Positions 17,898 through 63,729 of a stretch of DNA of 64,000 bases are shown in pieces. A program made the translations under genes and the position numbers. Origin of the DNA: an uncultured bacterium (GTDB lineage: Bacteria > Desulfobacterota > GWC2-55-46); contig CAJPGC010000030.1 of assembly GCA_905339405.1 (NCBI GenBank), positions 43,956-107,955 of the forward strand, written 5' to 3'. Positions within the stretch are counted from its first letter, which is position 1. Each line of letters starts with the position of its first letter. The notes beneath the pieces were generated by a model that ran no database searches, was not told the DNA's origin, and saw nothing but the letters and a program-made list of their open reading frames with translations.

Positions 17898-19448
17898 ATG
17901 GACAACGAAGTTTTCGAGACGATGCCCAAAGGCGGCATACACAGGATAAAAGAGATAAAAGACGAGTACGTCGACCCGGCCATGCTCGAGAAAGTGAGCC
18001 TCAGCTACGTCAAGAAGAACATGGTCATGCCGCTTCGCGTGAAAGAAGGCCACCTGCTCGTGGCCCTCTCCGGGCCCAGGGGCATATTCACGGTAAACGA
18101 GCTCGAGCGCCTCACCGGGCTTCCGGTAAAACCTGTATTCGCCTCAGAAAAGCAGATACTCGACGCGATAAACAGGTTCTACGACAGGCTCTCCGGGTCG
18201 GCCCAGGACGTCATGAACGGGATGAGCGGCGAGTCAATAGAGTCGATATCGACGACCGAATGGGAAGAGCCCAAGGACCTCCTGGACGCCGCTGACGAGG
18301 CTCCCATCATAAGGCTCCTGAACTCGCTCCTTTTCAGGGCCGTCAAGGACAGGGCCAGCGACATACACATCGAGCCCTATGAAAAAGAGGTCGAGGTCAG
18401 GTACAGGATAGACGGCGTACTGTACCCGGTGCTTACCCCTCCAAAGAGTATACAAGAAGCCCTTGCGAGCAGGGTCAAGATAATGGCCGGACTCGACATT
18501 GCCGAAAAAAGGCTGCCGCAGGACGGCAAAATAAGGCTACTCGTCGCCGGGAAGGACGTGTACGTCAGGGTGTCGGTCATGCCGACTTCGTACGGCGAAA
18601 GGATAGTGCTCCGCATACTCGACCGCAAGTCCGACATAATAACCCTCGACATGCTCGGGCTCACGGCCCGCCAGGTCACGGTCCTCGAGGGGCTCCTTAC
18701 GAGGAGCAGCGGAATAATCCTCGTGACCGGGCCAACCGGCTCGGGAAAGACGACCACCCTCTACTCCGCCATAAACAGCATAAACTCGACCGCAAGGAAC
18801 ATCATCACTGTCGAAGACCCTGTCGAGTACCAGTTGAAGGGAATAGGCCAGGTGCACGTGAACCCGAAGATAGGGCTCACCTTCGCCCACGGCCTGCGCT
18901 CAATCCTTAGGCAGGACCCCGACGTCATAATGGTCGGAGAGATAAGGGACAGGGAGACGGCTGAGATAGCCATACAGGCCTCCCTAACCGGCCACCTCGT
19001 GCTCTCGACCCTCCACACGAACGACACCGCGAGCGCCATCACCAGGCTCGTGGACATGGGCATAGAGCCTTTCCTCGTGGCCTCGTCGCTCTCAGGCGTG
19101 CTGGCCCAGAGGCTCGTGAGGGTGCTGTGCCCCGAGTGCAAAAAGCAATACGAGCCGACGGCCGAAGAGGCTAAGCTCTTTCAGACCAGGCCCGCGAAGC
19201 TGTACGCCGCCAGTGGCTGCGACAAGTGCTTTTCCACCGGCTATTACGGCAGGCTCGGCATATTCGAGTTCCTCGTGCCGGGCCAGGAGATGAGGCCGAT
19301 GATATTGAAAAATCAGGACGCCGACACCCTGAAGAGGTACGCCATATCCAAAGGCATGCGCACGATGATGGAAGACGGACTTGAGAAGGCGGCCCTCGGG
19401 ATGACGAGCGTGGAAGAGGTGCTGAGGGTCACGAAGGACGAGGAGTAG
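17898..19448 (+). CDS. gspE: Type II secretion ATPase E
   Basis: ASDIHIEP, GPTGSGKTT, LRQDPD, TLHTND and a CPEC/CDKC Zn site. Confidence 0.96.
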   Translation: MDNEVFETMPKGGIHRIKEIKDEYVDPAMLEKVSLSYVKKNMVMPLRVKEGHLLVALSGPRGIFTVNELERLTGLPVKPVFASEKQILDAINRFYDRLSGSAQDVMNGMSGESIESISTTEWEEPKDLLDAADEAPIIRLLNSLLFRAVKDRASDIHIEPYEKEVEVRYRIDGVLYPVLTPPKSIQEALASRVKIMAGLDIAEKRLPQDGKIRLLVAGKDVYVRVSVMPTSYGERIVLRILDRKSDIITLDMLGLTARQVTVLEGLLTRSSGIILVTGPTGSGKTTTLYSAINSINSTARNIITVEDPVEYQLKGIGQVHVNPKIGLTFAHGLRSILRQDPDVIMVGEIRDRETAEIAIQASLTGHLVLSTLHTNDTASAITRLVDMGIEPFLVASSLSGVLAQRLVRVLCPECKKQYEPTAEEAKLFQTRPAKLYAASGCDKCFSTGYYGRLGIFEFLVPGQEMRPMILKNQDADTLKRYAISKGMRTMMEDGLEKAALGMTSVEEVLRVTKDEE

Positions 19449-20717: not shown

Positions 20718-20892
20718 CGCGCCATCCCGTTCATCCCAAAAGCATACCTTCTGGTATTAGTCAAAATACTACCGTTTTTTATTCTTTCGGTGGATTGTAT
20801 TGGCACAATGCTCGGCTATCCTCTTCTTGTATGCGGCATCTGGAAAATCATTTAACAGGCCGGTCAATTATTTTGCAATCACAGGGGTTTCG

Positions 20893-21240
20893 ATGAGCCT
20901 CAGGATCTGCCCGGAATGCACAAAGGCGTTTTTCATGTCCCTTCTGGACAGCCATGCCAGGTGCCCGCATTGCGGCGTCTTCCTCGCGGACAGAAGGTGC
21001 TCCAAGAGGGAGCGCAAGGTCCGCCAGGTCACTTTCTCATTCAGCGGGTGCGTACAGAGGGCGAAAACGACCGATTTTTCCGGACACGGGGCCGGGATAG
21101 TATTCGCCGGGAAATATCTTGAAAAAGGCACGGTCATAGACGTCACCATAAGCGGGCTCATCATAAAAAAGCCGGCGAGGATGGTCTGGTCGAAACAGGG
21201 CTCGGGCTCGCTAATATCAGCCGGGATAGAGCTCCTGTAA
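20893..21240 (+). CDS. Zinc-ribbon plus PilZ domain protein
   Basis: CPEC...CPHC, then RCSKR (RxxxR) and DFSGHG (DxSxxG). Confidence 0.8.
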   Translation: MSLRICPECTKAFFMSLLDSHARCPHCGVFLADRRCSKRERKVRQVTFSFSGCVQRAKTTDFSGHGAGIVFAGKYLEKGTVIDVTISGLIIKKPARMVWSKQGSGSLISAGIELL

Positions 21241-54247: not shown

Positions 54248-55270
54248 TTGCGAGATTCTTTTTCCGGAAAGCATTCCAAAGAGCGCGCCAGCGGCCGCGC
54301 CGGAAGTATTGAGCACCAGGTCGGAGAGCTGCGAGAACCGCTCAGGCATGAATACCTGGGCCGTCTCTATCGACAGTGACAGGGCAAAGCAGACTGAAAC
54401 GGCGAAGATGAGCTTCATGGCGGCGCTCCGGGCGGCGGGCTTAAAGAAATAGGCCAGAAACCCCAGCGGCATGAAGCCGATGAGGTTAACTGCAACGTCA
54501 GCGCCGTCGAACCGGAAACTTCTCCCGCTTTCGAAGACCGGGCCCAGGAAGACCCTTTTCGCGGGCCTGAATACAGGCGGCAAGGATATCTGAGGCCCTC
54601 CCGTGACCGAGTTTTTAACCAGAGGTCCGCTCCCATCGAAAAGGTAAAGACCTGTGAGCCCTGATGCCGGCCCTGCTGCCAAAGAGGCTTCAGGCAATCC
54701 GGCCTCTTCAGGTGAAAGCGCCCTGTTCCATAGCGCGAGGCTCCTGAGGCTCCCATGCCAGTGATGTCTTCCATCAGGTGAAGAGCCGAGAGTAAAGCAG
54801 GCCGCCTTCTCGATCGCGTAAGACGGATTCAGGGAACGCCCTGCGAACTTCCCGTCTACATACAGTATGATTCCGCCCTTTCCGGCGGCGACAAGAATAG
54901 AGGCCCACTTGTCTTTTGAAAATGCCGACCTTGCGCCTGTAACTGCCTCTGAGCCAATGTTGATTATTGCCCGGCCGCTCCATTGAGATACGCTTAAAAC
55001 TTCTTTACCGGCGGCGTCATAAAAAGAGAGCAAAGCGCCTGACCGGTCCATTAAAAAATCCCGCGCGACGGCTGAAATCTCTATTGTCGCCTCCCCTGCC
55101 GGGAAAAGCGGAGCGCTGGCGCAGGCCCCTGCGATACCTGAGCCGGTAAATTCGAGACTCTGCCCGTTGAGCCTGGCCCCGTTTTCAGGGCTTGTCTCAA
55201 AAGGCCACAAACCAGCGACGAGAGCGACGACGACCATGACAGAGAACAGGACCGGGACGAGAAACCTCAT
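54236..55270 (-). CDS. LamG/concanavalin-like domain plus C-terminal VanZ membrane protein
   Basis: N-terminal TM ending LVAGLWPF; LamG-like LYVDG, LG....HWHG.L...ALWNRALS; VanZ-like D...N.IGFMPLG, IETAQ.F.P.R.S..SD...NT.G. Confidence 0.8.
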   Translation of the reverse strand: MRFLVPVLFSVMVVVALVAGLWPFETSPENGARLNGQSLEFTGSGIAGACASAPLFPAGEATIEISAVARDFLMDRSGALLSFYDAAGKEVLSVSQWSGRAIINIGSEAVTGARSAFSKDKWASILVAAGKGGIILYVDGKFAGRSLNPSYAIEKAACFTLGSSPDGRHHWHGSLRSLALWNRALSPEEAGLPEASLAAGPASGLTGLYLFDGSGPLVKNSVTGGPQISLPPVFRPAKRVFLGPVFESGRSFRFDGADVAVNLIGFMPLGFLAYFFKPAARSAAMKLIFAVSVCFALSLSIETAQVFMPERFSQLSDLVLNTSGAAAGALFGMLSGKRISQSKD

Positions 55271-56111
55271 CTTCGCGTTGTTTGCGGCATTTTCAGTCTT
55301 CATCTATTCGCCTTATCTCATTGCTCTTTATAATCTCTCGAGTGAAAACGAGCTGTACTCCTACGCGCCTTTCATCCCGCTTTTCAGCGCGTACCTCCTT
55401 TATTCTAATCGGAAGAAGATATTCACGCAAACGGGATTTTCAAACCGGGGCATTGCGCTGATAATCGCCTCCGGGCTCCTTTACGCCGCCGCTCAGTTCT
55501 CAGCCCTGAGCGGAGACAACATACTCACTGTCATGGCAGTGTCCTGGGCCGCGTTTCTGTCCGGCGGCTTCATGACGGTTTACGGGACAAGGGCCGCCAG
55601 GGCAGGCGCCTTTCCGCTCGCCTTTCTCCTGTTCATGGCCCCCCTGCCCCAATCTGCGGTCGACACGCTGACGCAGTTACTCCAGTCCTGGTCAGCGGAG
55701 ACGGCCTGGTGGCTCTTTAACCTCGTCGGCGCACCGGTCCACAGGGAGGGCTACTTCTTCCACCTGCCCGGACTCACGGTAGAGGTCGCCAAACAGTGCA
55801 GCGGGATAAGATCGAGCATGGCTCTTTTCATCTCCGGGGTCCTCGCGTCCCACCTGTTCCTTAGGACCTGGCCAGCCAGGGGCGCGCTCCTCGCGGCAGT
55901 CGTGCCGATAGCAGTCCTCAAGAACGGGCTCAGGATAACGGCCTTGACGCTCTCCGGGTATTACGTCGACGAGCGGATGCTCTACGGGAGCCTGCACACG
56001 AGGGGCGGCATGCTTTTTTTCGGCGTCGCTATCGCCCTCGCCGGGTGTGCCGTCTGGGGGCTCCGAGCGCTCGAGCGCAAATCGGCAAAAAAAAATGCCG
56101 CGGGGGCCTGA
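55236..56111 (+). CDS. Exosortase (EpsH/Xrt family), with no fused EpsI domain
   Basis: YSY..FIP, FPL.FL.F..PLP, VA..CSGIRS (Cys), NGLR (Arg) and LH...G (His). Confidence 0.92.
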   Translation: MTENRTGTRNLIFALFAAFSVFIYSPYLIALYNLSSENELYSYAPFIPLFSAYLLYSNRKKIFTQTGFSNRGIALIIASGLLYAAAQFSALSGDNILTVMAVSWAAFLSGGFMTVYGTRAARAGAFPLAFLLFMAPLPQSAVDTLTQLLQSWSAETAWWLFNLVGAPVHREGYFFHLPGLTVEVAKQCSGIRSSMALFISGVLASHLFLRTWPARGALLAAVVPIAVLKNGLRITALTLSGYYVDERMLYGSLHTRGGMLFFGVAIALAGCAVWGLRALERKSAKKNAAGA

Positions 56112-56135: not shown

Positions 56136-57950
56136 TTAGAGATGGCGTTTCCTGTTGACTCTCATGACGACCGCTATGCCGGTGAACATCATGGCCAGCG
56201 CGCCCGCCAGAACAGGGTACTTGAAGCCGTAGACTATGGGGGTCAGCGCGACCCTGGAGACGGCCCTCAGCGTCTCATGCCTGGCTATGAAGTCGGCCAC
56301 CGGGGGAGACACCCTGTAGTAAAGGTCGACGAACGATGCCCCGAGCGGGTTTGTAAGGAGCACGTTGTCCCTGAAGGAACGCAGGACCATGACCTCCGGC
56401 TCGAGATAGCTGCCGTAGGCCGCGGTGGCGATAAAGCAGCCGCCGCCGCTACTTACGCCGGAAGGCCCGGAGATCGGGGTGCCCGGGTTCACCGCGGCGT
56501 CAGCCACTTCGACCGTTGTCATGGCAGTAGCGGTAGCGCCCTGGTTGTCCGTGACCTTCACAACCGGGGTGTATGAGCCGGGCGCGGTGTAGCTATAGAG
56601 CGCCGGGGCTGTCGTGGTGGTGGCGTCTATCGTGCCGTTGCCGTCGAAGTCCCACTCGAACTTTACGATGACGCCGTTCGGGTCAGAGGCCGATACGTTG
56701 AAAGTAACCGACGAGGTCGAGCCGCTCTGCGTGACCGTCCCGAGTATCGACACGATGATGGGCGGCGTGTTCGCGGAGGTCGAAACAGTGACGGCCTCGG
56801 GGTCTGATATAACGTAGGCCCCTCCGTTGTCCTTTGCCCTCACGCGGGCGTTGTAGGTGCCTGCGGTCTGATAGGTTTTCGCCGCGGAAGGCGTAACGCT
56901 CGAGTAATCGTAGACGCCGTCACCGTCGAAGTCCCACTCATACCCGGTTATCGTGCCGTCGCTGTCGGCCACCGATGCCGTGAACTGGACCTGCAGCGGG
57001 GCGGTGCCGGAGGACGGGGATGCCGCGATGGACGTGACAACCGGCGGCACGTTGGAAGTGGTAAAGGTGCTGCCGGACGAGGTGGCGCTGTTACCGGCCT
57101 TGTCGGCTGAAACCACCCTGTAGCTGTAGGTTGTGAAGCTCTTGAGGCCAGCTATCTCGGCGGAATGTACGGTTTCAAGCTGTGAGTTGAGCGCCGTGGA
57201 AGCCGAATAGCTGCCGCCTGTGCCGAATTGGACCTGGGTCGTAGACGGCTCGTTGGTCGTCCATGTCACTAGCGCTGAGGAGGCGGTAATGTTCTCCACT
57301 TTCACGTTAGAAACGACCGGGGGCGTAACATCGGCGGCCGCCGCCGTAGTGAAGGTAAAATCAGGCGAGGTAGTGGAATTGCCAGCTGCGTCCTTGCTCA
57401 CGACCCTGTAGTGATAGAGGGTCGATGGCGAAAGGCCGGATACCGCCTGGATGTGGTTCGTGGCCAGCGCTGTGTTCAGCGTCGTGGTATAGCCGTACGA
57501 GGTCGTCATGCCGTACTGCACCTGTGTGGTCGAGGGCTCGTCGGTTATCCAGTTGATGGTTACGGCGTCCGGGCCAGGCGCTGCCGTGTACACGCCGGAT
57601 ATGACCGGCCCTGCCACGTCGTTCACCACTGACTTTGAGACTTCGTTCGAATACGCGCTCTCCGTCATGGCCGTGTTGTAGGCCGTGACCGCGAAGAAAT
57701 AGGTCGCGTTGGACAGGTTCGACACCTTGTACGTCGTTACCCTGCCCGCGTCAACGGACTGCGTGTAGGCCCCGGGAGCGGTGCCGTAATAGACCTTATA
57801 TCCCCCGAGGTCGGTCAACGGAGACCCGTTGGTATATGTTGTGGGCGCGGCCCATGACAGGGTTGCGTCTCCGGCCAGAGCCGGGCCCGCTGACATGAAA
57901 GACATGGCCAGCGCGGCTAGAAACACCTTGAGCTTTTCCTTCCTTGGCAT
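56136..57950 (-). CDS. Secreted Fn3/Ig-like plus 2x PKD surface protein with a CFI-box-CTERM tail
   Basis: Signal peptide; Fn3 ([15 protein letters not shown]); two W.T.EPSTTQV..G repeats; two WDFDG.G PKD repeats; [15 protein letters not shown]...LRSFRD...YY..SPP, then TM and RKRH. AGGAGG RBS. Confidence 0.9.
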
Positions 57951-57974
57951 TGCACTTCCTCCTTCTTGGTGAAT

Positions 57975-58011
57975 AAAAAAACCGCCTAAAGGCATGGTGA
58001 TCCTTTGGCGG
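57975..58011 (-). terminator. Riboswitch-controlled intrinsic terminator
   Basis: Minus strand CCGCC-AAAGG...CCUUU-A-GGCGG-U7; overlaps the 3' strand of aptamer P1. Confidence 0.85.
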
Positions 58012-58135
58012 CTCGGCGAACCTGGAAGCTGGGTGCGAATGTCAGGGAGTTAAATCAGCAGGAGGTGCCCGGTCTTCTTTAGTCCCGTTGCTCTGCGCCG
58101 CCGGGTTTCCCCGGGTTTGCTCTAAGCAAAGGATC
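57999..58135 (-). ncRNA. Cyclic dinucleotide GEMM-I (c-di-GMP-I family) riboswitch, A20 variant
   Basis: Minus strand: P1 GAUCCUUUG/CAAAGGAUC; J1/2 CUUAGA; GCAAA-CCCGGG-GAAA-CCCGG-CGGCGCAGAGC; receptor GGGACUAAAG; 3' UCGCCGAGCCGCC. Confidence 0.92.
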
Positions 58136-58159
58136 CAAATAGTGATTTTTTTCGAAGTC

Positions 58160-58202
58160 ATTGTAATAAATACGCATTGTCAGGTATGTGACATTCATCA
58201 CT
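58160..58202 (-). promoter_or_regulatory. Class II CRP/FNR-type promoter driving the riboswitch leader
   Basis: -10 TACAAT (58165-58160, minus strand). TGTGA-N6-TCACT at 58187-58202 is centred at -41.5. An overlapping TGTCA-N6-TGACA palindrome lies at 58178-58193. Confidence 0.6.
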
Positions 58203-58213
58203 GGACAGAGAAG

Positions 58214-59665
58214 ATGGGGACATACGGGGAAGAAATATTCATCGGGTCAGTGGCAGGCGCGCTGGGCCTGGGGGCGGTATGCCTCGCGGCGGTCTTTTTC
58301 AGGCGGACTCCCAAAAGGGTCTTCCTCCTGGCGGGAGCGGCGGCGTACATGGCGGGCGCTATGACGTTCTCCACCCCTGGCCCTTCTGCGGCCGGGGCTC
58401 AATACATACGCTCGCTTTTCCTCCTGCTTTCAGCGGGCTTCGCTGTCTCTGCCCTGCCCGCAGGTCTTTTTAAAAAAACATTTTCAACACTGGGCGCGAG
58501 GCTGTGGCGCAGATACGAATACATGGACCTGTGGCTCGAGACGACCGAGAAGATAAGCTCAAGGCTCGAGACGTCAGAGATAAAAAGTTTTCTCGCCGAG
58601 GTATGCGGCCGCGCTCTCGGCGCCTCCCCGGTGCACGTTTGGCTCTATGAAGCGCCCTCGCGCTGCTTCATCGCAAATTCCTTGAGCATCGGGCCTTCAT
58701 TCAGAAGGATAAGGGCTGAACACCGGCTGATAGAGCACATCAGGTCGTCCACAAGGCAGCCTTTCCTGCTTAAGGACGCGCTCACGCCTGAAGAGTTCAG
58801 GAGCTTCGCGGTCCCCCTGAAGGCGGAAGTCTGCGCCCCTCTCATAGTCCACGGGGAGATAACCGGGTTTCTGCTCGCCGGGCGAAGGGACAGGCCGGCG
58901 TATGCGCAAGACGAGCTGCGCCTCCTCGGCGCCATCGCAGCGCAGGCCGCGGTCCAGGTGAAAAACGTCCGCCTGAGCGGCGAGATACTCGACATGAAGG
59001 AGTCGGACCTGTTCAACAGGATGTCCTCGTTCGTGGCGCACGACCTCAAAAACCTCACGAACTCTCTCGCGCTCCTCGGGCACAACGCCAGGACGAACAT
59101 CTCAAACCCGGCTTTCCAGAGGGAGGCGCTAAAAGCCATAGACGCGACGGTAGTCAAGATGCGCTCCCTGGTTGAAAAGATGGCGGGCGGGATGCGCGCG
59201 CTCGAGCTAAACCCCAACTGGAGCGATTTGCGCGCAGTCATGGCCAGGGCCGCGGGCCGCCTCCCGGTCAAGGCAAACTCGAGGCTCAAGATCGAAGAAG
59301 GCAGTCCCCTGCCCTGCCTCATAGATGAAGAGCTCGTCGAGACGGTCTTCCTGAACATCCTTACGAACGCCTCTGAAGCGACCACTGACAGGGACGAGAT
59401 ACTGGTCTCGTTCCGGCAGGGACAGGGCACTCTTTCGGCCGTAATATCGGACAACGGCTACGGCATACCTATGCCTTTCCTCGAGAACGGCCTTTTCAGG
59501 CCGTTCAGGACCACAAAAAAGGACGGCTTCGGCGTGGGCCTGTATCAGTGCAAAAAGGTGATGGAAGCCCACGGCGGCACGATAGAGGCCGAAAGCGAGG
59601 AAGGCAAAGGCGCCTCGTTCACATTGAAGTTCCCGCTGCCGGTTGGCGGCGAAAAAGCATGTTAA
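58214..59665 (+). CDS. prsK: PrsK-like sensor histidine kinase (shortened)
   Basis: GAF domain, FNRMSSFVAHDLKN, NILTNA, DNGYG, FRPFRTTK and GFGVGLYQ. Lies upstream of prsR. Confidence 0.8.
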   Translation: MGTYGEEIFIGSVAGALGLGAVCLAAVFFRRTPKRVFLLAGAAAYMAGAMTFSTPGPSAAGAQYIRSLFLLLSAGFAVSALPAGLFKKTFSTLGARLWRRYEYMDLWLETTEKISSRLETSEIKSFLAEVCGRALGASPVHVWLYEAPSRCFIANSLSIGPSFRRIRAEHRLIEHIRSSTRQPFLLKDALTPEEFRSFAVPLKAEVCAPLIVHGEITGFLLAGRRDRPAYAQDELRLLGAIAAQAAVQVKNVRLSGEILDMKESDLFNRMSSFVAHDLKNLTNSLALLGHNARTNISNPAFQREALKAIDATVVKMRSLVEKMAGGMRALELNPNWSDLRAVMARAAGRLPVKANSRLKIEEGSPLPCLIDEELVETVFLNILTNASEATTDRDEILVSFRQGQGTLSAVISDNGYGIPMPFLENGLFRPFRTTKKDGFGVGLYQCKKVMEAHGGTIEAESEEGKGASFTLKFPLPVGGEKAC

Positions 59666-61044
59666 CGGAGAAGGACAGGGTGGAAAAACATAAGCTCCTC
59701 GTTATCGAAGACGACGACACCCTGCGGGCGCAGATGCAGTGGGCTCTGGCGGAAGAGTACGAAGTGCTCCCGGCTGACGGCCCAGAGGCGGCAATCCAGG
59801 CACTGCTCGCGGCCCAGCCCCATCTCGTCACCCTCGACCTCGGGCTGGCGCCGAACACCTCGGACTCCTCCGCCGGGTTCCGGCTCCTTGGGAAGATACT
59901 CCAGCAGTCACCGCTGGCCAAGGTGATCGTCGTGACCGGAAATGCGCAGCGGGACCTCGCGATGAAGGCCATCTCCCAAGGCGCGCACGATTTCATGGCA
60001 AAGCCCGTCGACGTAGGGGAGCTCAAGATAATCCTCAAGAGGGCATCGTACATACATTCGCTCGAATCCGAGCAGGCCCGTCTCCAGAGGTCCGGTGAGG
60101 GCCGGGACTTCGAGGAGATACTCGGGATGAGCTCCGGGATCCAGGGCGTTTTTTCAACCATAAGGAAAGTAGCCTCGACCGACGTGCCGGTCCTTGTTAC
60201 CGGAGAGAGCGGCACCGGAAAGGAGCTGATAGCGCGCGCCATCCACAACGGCAGTCTCAGAAAGAGCAGGCCATTCGTGCCCATAAACTGCGGGGCCATA
60301 CCTGAGGCGCTCCTGGAAAGCGAGCTTTTCGGCCATGAAAGGGGCGCGTTCACCGGAGCACACGCCCAAAGGAGCGGAAGGATAGAGATGGCGCAGGGCG
60401 GCACCCTGTTCCTCGACGAGATAGCAGAGCTCCCGCTGGCGCTCCAGGTAAAGGTGCTGAGGTTCCTTCAGGACCACAAGCTGGAGCGGGTCGGAGGCAG
60501 GGGCGCGATAAACATGGACGTACGGGTCGTAGCGGCCGCAAACAAGTGCCTGAAGAAGCTCGTGGCGGAAGGAAGGTTCAGGGAGGACCTTTATTACAGG
60601 CTCGCAGTTGTGAGCATCGAAGTGCCGCCGCTGCGCGAGCGGGACGACGACATTGTGCTCCTGGCGAAGGCGTTCCTCAAAAAATACTCCAACGAGCGCG
60701 CCAGGGCGAAGGCGCTGAGCGCGCAAGCGGTCGACACGATAAAAGCCTACAACTGGCCGGGCAACGTCCGCGAGCTGGAAAACCGCGTGAGAAGAGCCGT
60801 GACGTTCGCCGAGGGGCCTCTCGTGAGGCCGTCCGACCTGGGCTTCGGCCCCCTGGACGAGGCGTCCCAGAACCTCGACCTCAAGAAGGCAAAGGAGGAC
60901 CTGGAGCTGAAGTTCGTCCAGATGGCCATCATCAAACACAACGGCAACATCAGCAAGGCGGCGGAAGAACTCGGCCTCAGCAGGCCTACTGTGCACCACA
61001 TAATCAAGAAATACAACATGCTTGAATCCGTAAGAAAGGGGTAG
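59659..61044 (+). CDS. prsR: PrsR sigma54-dependent response regulator
   Basis: Q.QWAL, VTLDLGL, GESGTGKE, ESELFG.E.GAFTGA, LFLDEI, WPGNVRELEN and Fis HTH. Confidence 0.9.
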   Translation: MLTEKDRVEKHKLLVIEDDDTLRAQMQWALAEEYEVLPADGPEAAIQALLAAQPHLVTLDLGLAPNTSDSSAGFRLLGKILQQSPLAKVIVVTGNAQRDLAMKAISQGAHDFMAKPVDVGELKIILKRASYIHSLESEQARLQRSGEGRDFEEILGMSSGIQGVFSTIRKVASTDVPVLVTGESGTGKELIARAIHNGSLRKSRPFVPINCGAIPEALLESELFGHERGAFTGAHAQRSGRIEMAQGGTLFLDEIAELPLALQVKVLRFLQDHKLERVGGRGAINMDVRVVAAANKCLKKLVAEGRFREDLYYRLAVVSIEVPPLRERDDDIVLLAKAFLKKYSNERARAKALSAQAVDTIKAYNWPGNVRELENRVRRAVTFAEGPLVRPSDLGFGPLDEASQNLDLKKAKEDLELKFVQMAIIKHNGNISKAAEELGLSRPTVHHIIKKYNMLESVRKG

Positions 61045-62382: not shown

Positions 62383-63729
62383 ATGCCAAAACCAGGGCTC
62401 CTCATACTCGACTCGGACGAGACCGCAAGAGGGCAGATGCGCTGGGCCTTCTCGAGGGACTACGACGTCTTCGAGGCGGCGACCAGGGCCGAGGCCGTCC
62501 AGATAGCAGGTGACGGACAAGTGCCTGCGGGGATTGTCGACCTGGGGCTGCCGCCTCAGCCGCTCAAAGCGACCGAAGGCATGACGGCAGTGCGGGAGAT
62601 CCTTTCAATAAACCCGCTTTTCAAGGCGGTCGTCGTCACTGGCCTCGGCGAAATGGACGACGCCTTGCGGGCGGTCGACATGGGCGCATTCGATTTTTTC
62701 ACCAAGCCGATTGCGATAGAGGACGTAAGGCTTACGATCAGGAGGGCCGTCAACACCTACAGGCTCCAGGTGGAGAGCATGGGCGGACAGCCGGGGGCCG
62801 CATGGCCCGGCGAGCTAATAGGCCTCTGCCAGCCCATGCAGGAAGTCTTCAGCACGGTTCGAAAGCTCGCCGAGGTGAACATCCCGGTACTCATACAGGG
62901 CGAGACGGGCTCCGGCAAGGAGACGCTCGCGAGGGCGGTGCACCGGATAAGCAGCAGACCCTCGATGCCGTTCGTCAAGGTCGCATGCGATTCCATGCCC
63001 GAGACGATACTGGCCGGAGAGCTTTTCGGCGAGGGGCAGGAGGAAACGAGACCAGGCGCCAAGGGCAAAATTGACCTCGGCGACGGCGGCACGCTTTACC
63101 TCGAGGAGGCGGGGGCCCTGAGCCCCGCCCTCCAGAAAAGGCTCTTGGGACGGCTTTTCGGGCGAAGCCTGGACAAGACGCCTCCGGACGGCAAAGCCTG
63201 CCCCGACACGCGGGTCATCGCCTCTTCGACCAGGGACATGAAATCGCTCGTAAGGGCCGGGGAGTTTTCAGAGGAGCTCTACAACAGGCTGGCGATAATA
63301 ACCTTTGCCGTCCCGCCGCTGCGCGACAGAGGCGAAGACGTGCATATGCTGTCGCTATACTTCCTTAAAAAATATTCGAAGGAACTGGGGCGCCAGGTCC
63401 TGGGGTTCGCTCCTGGGGCCGTCGAAGCAATGGCCGAATACGCTTGGCCGGGCAACGTCCGTGAGATGGAGAACAGGATAAGGCGTGCAGTCTCCCATAT
63501 CAGAAAAAAGGAGATAGCCGCCGAGGACCTCGCCATTCCCGCGGGCCCGGAGGCCGGCAACGGGCCCGGAAGCCTTACCGACACGCGTGAGGCGTTCAGG
63601 AAGAGGATGATATATGAAGTCCTCTGCCGCAATTTCGGCAACGTCACACGCACCGCAAACGAGCTGGGCATAAGCAGACAGTACCTTTCAAGGCTGATAG
63701 CGCGCTTCAACATCAAGATAAGCAGGTAA
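62383..63729 (+). CDS. PrsR paralogue with a degenerate AAA+ domain
   Basis: QMRWAF, IVDLGLPP, GETGSGKE, WPGNVREMEN and HTH are present. GAFTGA is absent and Walker B reads LYLEE. Confidence 0.85.
   Translation: MPKPGLLILDSDETARGQMRWAFSRDYDVFEAATRAEAVQIAGDGQVPAGIVDLGLPPQPLKATEGMTAVREILSINPLFKAVVVTGLGEMDDALRAVDMGAFDFFTKPIAIEDVRLTIRRAVNTYRLQVESMGGQPGAAWPGELIGLCQPMQEVFSTVRKLAEVNIPVLIQGETGSGKETLARAVHRISSRPSMPFVKVACDSMPETILAGELFGEGQEETRPGAKGKIDLGDGGTLYLEEAGALSPALQKRLLGRLFGRSLDKTPPDGKACPDTRVIASSTRDMKSLVRAGEFSEELYNRLAIITFAVPPLRDRGEDVHMLSLYFLKKYSKELGRQVLGFAPGAVEAMAEYAWPGNVREMENRIRRAVSHIRKKEIAAEDLAIPAGPEAGNGPGSLTDTREAFRKRMIYEVLCRNFGNVTRTANELGISRQYLSRLIARFNIKISR

Follow-up and report, generated by a model that had tools for sequence, protein, structure and literature searches.

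The window analysed here, i.e., the whole stretch of 64,000 nucleotides (nt) under study, comes from contig CAJPGC010000030.1 of an uncultured bacterium of the Desulfobacterota lineage GWC2-55-46 (assembly GCA_905339405.1). On its minus strand lies a gene for a secreted protein of 604 amino acids (aa), preceded by a leader that holds a GEMM-I aptamer and an intrinsic terminator (Table 1). The gene has a convergent exosortase gene on one side and divergent genes for a PrsK-like histidine kinase and a PrsR sigma-54 response regulator on the other, and elsewhere the window holds a cluster of type II secretion genes and a large exopolysaccharide locus of the XrtA/PEP-CTERM type. An earlier note on this DNA had read the leader as a riboswitch of the A20 type, meaning that the base equivalent to G20 of the Vibrio cholerae aptamer Vc2 is A, and as a candidate sensor of 3',3'-cGAMP (cyclic GMP-AMP) that would act as an ON switch for an adhesin. 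We conclude that this is a real riboswitch and that it is a probable cGAMP sensor.

When positions 57850-58300 were searched with permissive filters, the Rfam model of the cyclic di-GMP (c-di-GMP) riboswitch, c-di-GMP-I (RF01051), matched at 48.0 bits (gathering threshold 35, E-value 1.9e-8) from model position 1 to 87 of 87. A search of the bacterium's own genome returned the same aptamer, again at 48 bits. This is the Infernal check that the earlier note had proposed, and its claim of a complete A20-type aptamer stands: the score lies above the gathering threshold, the match is full-length, and the base at 58121 is A. The element at 58004-58131 is a genuine full-length GEMM-I aptamer of the A20 type, and the span outlined beforehand, 57975-58135, has the last base of the U-tract and the first base of helix P1 as its exact limits. 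When the whole 64-kb window was searched in one piece at the gathering threshold, Rfam gave no match. We discarded the reading of this result as a real absence, given the 48 bits of the local and own-genome runs, and attribute it to an artefact of the default filters caused by the long insertion in P3. Since long-insert GEMM-I members slip past these filters, the class is probably under-annotated in genome pipelines.

The alignment places A58121, the final unpaired base ahead of P2, at model position 11, which by the published layout of the Geobacter aptamer Gs1761 is the site of Gs1761 A14 and Vc2 G20 (in Gs1761, junction J1/2 is A9-A14, J2/3 is A41 and J1/3 is G74-C75, with A14 at the position of Vc2 G20; PMC6140456, PMC6274999). 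Every pocket coordinate given previously was confirmed by our alignment, namely the J1/2 sequence CUUAGA, A58121 and the equivalents of A47 and C92, the latter at 58008, and the long insertion noticed in P3 corresponds to 45 extra bases. The equivalents A58094 and C58008 are invariant across the 15 rows of our orthologue alignment (the window and 14 further long-insert loci from the window's family). In the GEMM-I fold, a GNRA tetraloop of P2 docks into a receptor in P3. Here the P2 loop is GAAA, conserved in the orthologues, and the candidate receptor region in P3 reads CUAAAG...CCAGG.

The fold is well supported across the orthologues. With the predicted partners, 87.3% of the alignment cells pair, compared with at most 49% when the partners are slid, and compensatory double changes occur in 10 of the 31 pairs, a count that none of 500 shuffles reached. 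The inner six pairs of P1 are retained in 14 to 15 of the 15 sequences, and double changes affect four P1 pairs. The P3 insertion has a similar length in all of them (matches of 124-135 nt). It is pyrimidine-rich and poorly conserved, save for the semi-conserved patch ACAUUCG and for CUGG/CCAG, by which P3 is extended, and RNAalifold, run on the orthologues, predicted no pairs in it beyond this short extension.

The aptamer is followed by a terminator hairpin composed of GAGCCGCCAAAGG and CCUUU-A-GGCGGUUU, then U7. Folded alone, it has a free energy of -17.3 kcal/mol (z -3.66), and a single one of 200 shuffles folded as well. In the minimum-energy fold of the whole leader, the terminator hairpin is formed and P1 is not. 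The 5' arm of the terminator consists of the tail of the P2/P3 3' strand, the G of J1/3, C58008 and, from the P1 3' strand, five bases. Because terminator and aptamer use the same bases, they are mutually exclusive, and ligand binding should give read-through. The leader folds thus bear out the earlier proposal that the P1 3' strand doubles as the terminator 5' arm, and add the C92 equivalent to the bases concerned; in such an ON-switch architecture, as modelled here, ligand binding should prevent termination. The cGAMP riboswitch of Geobacter metallireducens pilM likewise works as an ON switch, in which C75 is sequestered by the terminator (PMC9262584). An equivalent hairpin using CCGCCAAAGG was found in all 15 orthologues when these were folded singly, and a U-tract follows it in 13. 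The two orthologues with a hairpin and no U-tract belong to the sister genus g7 (loci L026 of genome G036 and L052 of genome G035), where control may not be by intrinsic termination. A simple terminator scan did not detect the hairpin of the window, as its loop of 9 nt and its bulge escape such a scan. Covariation of the terminator pairs was uninformative on the alignment, where the 5' arm is invariant and the 3' arm has indels; single-sequence folds were used instead.

Table 1. Features of the riboswitch locus, in window positions.
Feature	Positions	Strand	Details
Candidate Crp/Fnr-type operator	58187..58201	minus	GTGA-N6-TCACA, then invariant TACC; putative function
Candidate -10 box	58160..58165	minus	TACAAT; putative
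GEMM-I aptamer (RF01051), full model length	58131..58004	minus	cmscan alignment, covariation
P1 5' strand	58127..58135	minus	GAUCCUUUG; partner of 58007-57999
J1/2	58121..58126	minus	CUUAGA; A58121 at the Vc2 G20 / Gs1761 A14 position
J2/3	58093..58094	minus	A58094 (A47/A41 equivalent, intercalating adenine) and G58093 (model position 39)
Insertion of 45 nt, distal P3 loop	58029..58073	minus	RF01051 alignment
J1/3	58008..58009	minus	GC; G58009 and C58008 (C92/C75 equivalent), the latter expected to pair with the ligand guanine
P1 3' strand	57999..58007	minus	CAAAGGAUC; common to P1 and terminator
Intrinsic terminator	57975..58014	minus	5' arm 58014-58002, loop 58001-57993, 3' arm 57992-57979 (one bulged A), U-tract 57981-57975
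Ribosome-binding site	57958..57962	minus	GGAGG; 7 nt before ATG (57950); conserved in orthologues
Regulated gene, 604-aa secreted protein	56136..57950	minus	Pfam, translation, NF041770
Exosortase, EpsH family	55167..56111	plus	Convergent with the regulated gene; TIGR02602, 149 bits (cut-off 105.6)
PrsK-like histidine kinase and PrsR sigma-54 response regulator	58088..61044	plus	Divergent; TIGR02916, TIGR02915

These data bear on one of the rival explanations, in which the element binds another purine dinucleotide (for example, cyclic di-AMP (c-di-AMP) or a product peculiar to the Ser-type cyclases of this clade) or is a decaying relic that has ceased to switch. We regard this as very improbable. 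The conservation of aptamer, terminator and gene over at least five genera, with compensatory changes, argues against decay, and the C92 equivalent is kept for guanine, even though P3 has at its foot two non-canonical base pairs (in 15 and in 14 of the 15 orthologues), which counts against a cGAMP switch, the long insertion is unstructured, and GGDEF enzymes of the Hypr type make all three dinucleotides in vitro.

Upstream of the aptamer, we found a candidate operator of the Crp/Fnr type. The sequence GTGA-N6-TCACATACC is invariant in all ten orthologous upstream regions, in which the flanks diverge, and about 21 nt after it a TA(C/A)AAT box is kept in 10/10. The centre of the palindrome lies 29 nt before the -10 box, i.e., at about -41.5 when the box is set at -12 to -7, which is the class II position for activators of the Crp/Fnr type. 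The 19-mer operator sequence is unique in the genome, which encodes two Crp/Fnr-family proteins of the cyclic nucleotide-binding kind (L224:1018-1737 and L225:946-1707) and two class III cyclase domains. Some results speak against this promoter: the genome shows no excess of bare GTGA-N6-TCACA (19 strand matches, with about 20 expected by our own estimate), a simple sigma-70 scan gave no full promoter, and a sigma-54 pattern had 132 matches, none well placed, compared with 211 expected. The sigma-70 result fits a promoter that depends on an activator and has no -35 box. The arrangement suggests that initiation is controlled by a Crp-type activator and elongation is gated by the riboswitch. The gene may be under an AND gate or a feed-forward loop, with a cyclic AMP (cAMP)-type Crp activator acting on initiation and cGAMP on elongation.

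To assess the ligand, we analysed the cyclic dinucleotide enzymes of the genome, which is 95% complete and has 2.65 Mb. This aptamer is its only GEMM-I element above threshold; a second match (C14:10233-10317, 22.5 bits) has many non-canonical pairs and was dismissed as chance. Among the 15 GGDEF genes, three have Ser at the position of GacA 348 (D344 of PleD), with exact spacing to N339 and to GGDEF, so that the search for Hypr GGDEF genes recommended earlier gave a positive result. The domains that fit the template comprise three with Ser and GGDEF, none with Ser and GGEEF, six with Asp and GGEEF and none with Asp and GGDEF. Two signatures have been published for Hypr enzymes: Ser or Thr in place of Asp at 348, and GGDEF, not GGEEF, the 'Goldilocks' rule (PMC6456294, PMC8835794). 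By both of them, the three Ser-type proteins are predicted Hypr (cGAMP) cyclases. One has a Rec-GAF-GGDEF architecture and scores 178 bits against an endolysin-fused GGDEF chain, 6d9m, versus 138 against PleD, with the GS...GGDEF stretch aligned column for column. We take 6d9m to be the structure of Gmet_1914 from the name of the molecule (the paper lists 5VS9). The other two are GAF-GGDEF proteins. The cross-dimer position is occupied by Ser in two of the Ser-type cyclases and by Asp in one, and a Ser-type residue there is reported to yield mainly cGAMP. Two of the three have an RxxD site ahead of GGDEF.

The genome also has nine HD-GYP domains, whose Rxx(K/R) motif we located by anchoring on chain 4mcw of PmGH (RPYK). 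The motif reads RPY(R/K) in six of them, RPYS in one and RVYQ in two. RVYQ is the RxxQ signature of cGAMP-selective phosphodiesterases, in which Rxx(Q/N) replaces Rxx(K/R), and this is the predicted activity of the two domains (G000:C41:16953-17408 and G000:C57:37719-38198). In one of them GYP is replaced by GYH, and a C-terminal extension, G(I/L)YP(I/V)GT, is common to the two. Synthases of the CD-NTase/DncV type gave no match to PF18144 or PF21654 in the genome; PF21654 matched no control genome either, which makes this a weak negative.

Since the genome combines three Hypr-type cyclases, two RxxQ HD-GYP domains and a single A20 GEMM-I aptamer, cGAMP is the most likely ligand. Judging from these sequence features, we consider it rather probable that 3',3'-cGAMP is the physiological ligand of the ON riboswitch. 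In the Geobacter aptamer Gm0970, the change A20G shifts selectivity from cGAMP to c-di-GMP (PMC6456294). Several points weigh against this assignment, and some of them favour an aptamer that is bispecific for cGAMP and c-di-GMP, which we hold to be rather unlikely. A20 alone is no proof of cGAMP selectivity. The Vc2 mutant G20A binds c-di-GMP at 53 nM and cGAMP at 120 nM, Cbe 1-2, an A20 aptamer found in nature, binds the two ligands as well, both aptamers through a protonated adenine, and several natural members of the GEMM-Ib class are reported to be bispecific (PMC6140456). The J1/2 of the window, CUUAGA, is unlike that of the highly selective Gs1761 at two positions, as it has no counterpart of the adenines A9 and A11, which contact the ligand in simulations (PMC6274999). 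Finally, Hypr enzymes also produce c-di-GMP, and the genome has 12 other GGDEF genes, so that c-di-GMP is surely present.

The distribution of the cyclases among relatives adds to the points against cGAMP. Ser-type GGDEF genes with the Hypr pattern occur in 93 of 101 related genomes, one to three in each, and a reversed-pattern control matched none. Such a density is far above what has been reported for GGDEF domains at large. The pattern is present in all genomes with G20 aptamers, including all seven of genus g7, and two genomes with A20 aptamers, G061 (88% complete) and G081 (93%), have no match to it. We had considered the co-variation of Hypr cyclases with A20 and G20 as a test of the ligand and discarded it, since a pattern that is nearly universal among the relatives cannot discriminate between the ligands of the two kinds of aptamer.

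We searched the 101 genomes, the window's own included, with RF01051 under stricter filters and obtained 83 GEMM-I matches in 43 of them (again counting the window's own). Under these filters the aptamer of the window was seen only as a fragment of 27 bits, so that misses in this survey mean little. Assigned to scaffold classes by their first ten bases only, which left 17 unclear, the matches divide as follows: A20 is found in 41 of the 49 with a scaffold of the window's type (CUUUGCUCAG-like) and G20 in 14 of the 17 with the other scaffold (CACCGAUAAG-like). The base at model position 39 changes in step with this one: it is G in 46/49 A20 aptamers and A in 27/34 G20 aptamers. Nine genomes carry both A20 and G20 aptamers, as expected if the two kinds read different ligands. 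Hence, bispecificity has to be weighed against an A20 scaffold that is strongly conserved as a separate class and coexists with G20 aptamers in the same genomes; together with the co-variation of position 39, this suggests selection for a distinct specificity.

Eight of the 15 orthologues have A at position 20; two of their genomes belong to g1, three to g14, and one each to g4, g16 and family f13. The other seven, which make up the sister genus g7, all have G there (L039:1501-1635, L044:1501-1635 (minus), L037, L038, L026, L052 and L054). The g7 aptamers keep the G at position 39 that is typical of the A20 class and are the only seven G20 aptamers to do so; they precede the same gene, in genomes that hold two to three Hypr-pattern genes each. 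By parsimony, judged by eye, A at position 20 is probably ancestral, because the scaffold has A20 in six other families. We tentatively propose, as a possibility that falls short of a favoured conclusion, that the same riboswitch before the same gene was re-tuned by one base, from cGAMP with A20 to c-di-GMP or a relaxed specificity with G20 in g7. Such a change would matter little if A20 accepted c-di-GMP well, which is a further argument against bispecificity. If the proposal is true, the clade would be a natural evolutionary series for a change of ligand specificity, and position 39 would be a second, undescribed determinant of it. The A20/G20 orthologue pair is a ready-made test case for determinants of selectivity.

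The g7 orthologues, which control the same gene with G20, also bear on the idea that the window has in practice a c-di-GMP riboswitch despite its A20, the Ser-type GGDEF enzymes being irrelevant to it. This idea agrees with the identity of the family model, c-di-GMP-I, and with the PilZ and MshEN domains of the window, which point to c-di-GMP signalling around the locus. We consider it improbable all the same: the published A20 aptamers consulted all bind cGAMP, at least as one ligand, the identity of the base (A or G) sets the selectivity of Gm0970, and the genome has both the Hypr and the RxxQ signatures.

We also scanned named genomes with a 17-base motif, which was rejected as too short (about 1000 chance matches expected by our own estimate, 119 stretches matched). 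Among the best 80 of these 119, repeated or tandem matches in metagenome-assembled genomes (MAGs) labelled Nitrospirota are suggestive, and there is no Geobacter among the matches listed.

With cGAMP as the favoured ligand, control of the gene would proceed as follows. The transcript probably begins some 25 nt upstream of P1, at an activator-dependent promoter with the Crp/Fnr-like operator at about -41.5. When no ligand is bound, the tail of the P2/P3 3' strand, the G of J1/3, C58008 and the P1 3' strand pair with downstream bases, as in the predicted fold, and the resulting terminator with its U7 would stop the transcript before the gene. Once the aptamer has bound cGAMP, supplied by the Hypr-type GGDEF cyclases, A58121 would read its adenine, C58008 would pair with its guanine and A58094 would intercalate. 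P1 would then be locked and the terminator blocked, and RNA polymerase would read into the gene. Its product would act together with the neighbouring exosortase and PEP-CTERM exopolysaccharide system, as its domains and the conserved synteny suggest.

In the 604-aa protein, a signal peptide is combined with Fn3-like repeats, two PKD domains and a domain of the CFI-box-CTERM type (NF041770, 108 bits with a cut-off of 40, residues 505-573), after which come a hydrophobic membrane helix and a basic tail. The genome has no other CFI-box protein and encodes 11 PEP-CTERM proteins elsewhere. The role of adhesin assigned to it earlier remains a guess from the Fn3 and PKD repeats and the C-terminal anchor, and none of the papers searched mentions the CFI-box. 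Orthologues with 54-60% identity lie behind the riboswitch in 13 of the 14 other loci, and the fourteenth locus ends too early. Among named sequences, relatives of the protein were found in MAGs that carry the labels Deltaproteobacteria, Thermodesulfobacteriota, Nitrospirae and Thermodesulfovibrionales, and of these named ones the nearest are from Deltaproteobacteria (74% identity) and Thermodesulfobacteriota (59%). In two draft genomes the CFI-box gene is seemingly interrupted (a 67-aa open reading frame (ORF) with a downstream match in L042 of G003, and a 331-aa ORF in L038 of G033), which could reflect a frameshift or an assembly error.

The surroundings of the gene are partly conserved. 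The convergent exosortase, for which no subtype model reaches its own cut-off, is found in 4 of the 5 orthologous loci that extend far enough, and the divergent PrsK-like kinase in 10 of 14. This kinase (58088-59665, plus strand) scores 203 bits with TIGR02916, under the cut-off of 300 and over profile positions 299-679 only, and seems to be devoid of the multi-pass membrane part of PrsK. Its ORF as listed begins within the riboswitch, so that the true start probably lies farther downstream. PrsR scores 568.5 bits with TIGR02915 (cut-off 502.6), and a second PrsR-like sigma-54 response regulator, two genes past the first (62383-63729, plus strand), reaches 371 bits, below the cut-off. Farther away on the plus strand, a small PilZ ORF (20800-21240, 28 bits with a cut-off of 22.5) lies directly upstream of an exopolysaccharide export gene, and GspE, the ATPase of the type II secretion system (17898-19448), has an MshEN domain (62.8 bits). 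Their sequences make both candidate c-di-GMP receptors. The two-messenger control of matrix versus adhesin suggested earlier, in which such receptors might take part, is treated here as a hypothesis.

We then compared this system with those already known. To our knowledge, work on cGAMP riboswitches and on Hypr cyclases has dealt almost exclusively with Geobacter, and for the enzymes also with Myxococcus and Bdellovibrio. The GEMM-Ib riboswitches of Geobacter (Gs1761 upstream of pgcA, and Gm0970/pilM) have the same fold as the one of the window, with A at the G20/A14 position, equivalents of A41/A47 and C75/C92, a J1/2 of 6 nt and a GC J1/3, a likeness judged from junction lengths and positions. 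They also share its predicted transcriptional ON logic, with a terminator over the ligand-pairing cytosine, and the presence of Hypr GGDEF genes in the same genome. The window differs from Gs1761 by its 45-nt P3 insertion and by a CUUAGA J1/2 without A9 and A11 equivalents, and its host differs by being an uncultured bacterium other than Geobacter, with a genome of 2.65 Mb and a single GEMM-I, versus 17 in G. sulfurreducens. Vc2 is described by the same family model and has the same pocket positions, but with G20 and selectivity for c-di-GMP; its bispecific G20A mutant serves as the simplest model for an A20 aptamer. As for the enzymes, the three predicted cyclases share with GacA of Geobacter and GacB of Myxococcus the Ser348, the GGDEF motif and a Rec-(GAF)-GGDEF or GAF-GGDEF architecture. 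The two GAF-GGDEF proteins resemble the cAMP-activated GacB of M. xanthus, and one of the three Ser-type cyclases is set apart by the Asp at its cross-dimer position.

A literature search found no paper joining GEMM-Ib and Nitrospir, and one on cGAMP riboswitches with Desulfobacterota or exosortases gave, among the matches listed, only the Geobacter precedent. The closest counterpart of the regulated gene is GSU1945 of G. sulfurreducens, which encodes a fibronectin type III or repeat-containing protein behind GSUR3009/GSUR3010, has PEP-motif exosortase substrates in its neighbourhood, and has expression values of 359 in the wild type, 751 in an esnD deletion and 16 in a gacA deletion (eLife 2019, supplementary file 1). 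It is also listed among GEMM-I genes (PMC10599522) and GEMM-Ib transcripts (PMC8835794). Likened by annotation only, both genes encode a riboswitch-controlled Fn3/repeat surface protein in an exosortase-linked setting, in GSU1945 with an expression that depends on the cGAMP synthase GacA. GSU1945 has about 1047 aa (computed from its coordinates) and two tandem riboswitches, the gene of the window 604 aa and one riboswitch. Hence, the regulatory idea, control of an Fn3/repeat protein among exosortase substrates by a cGAMP riboswitch, is already known from Geobacter. New in the present case are the lineage and the long-insert form, the occurrence as a single copy next to an exosortase and PrsK/PrsR, the flip between A and G, the co-variation of position 39 and the promoter lead. 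Compared with the Geobacter systems, a predicted tool-kit of A20 aptamer, Ser/GGDEF cyclases and RxxQ phosphodiesterases appears to be spread through a lineage of uncultured bacteria of the Desulfobacterota type with small genomes, where the target under control would be a surface protein tied to an exosortase and exopolysaccharide system, not metal respiration.

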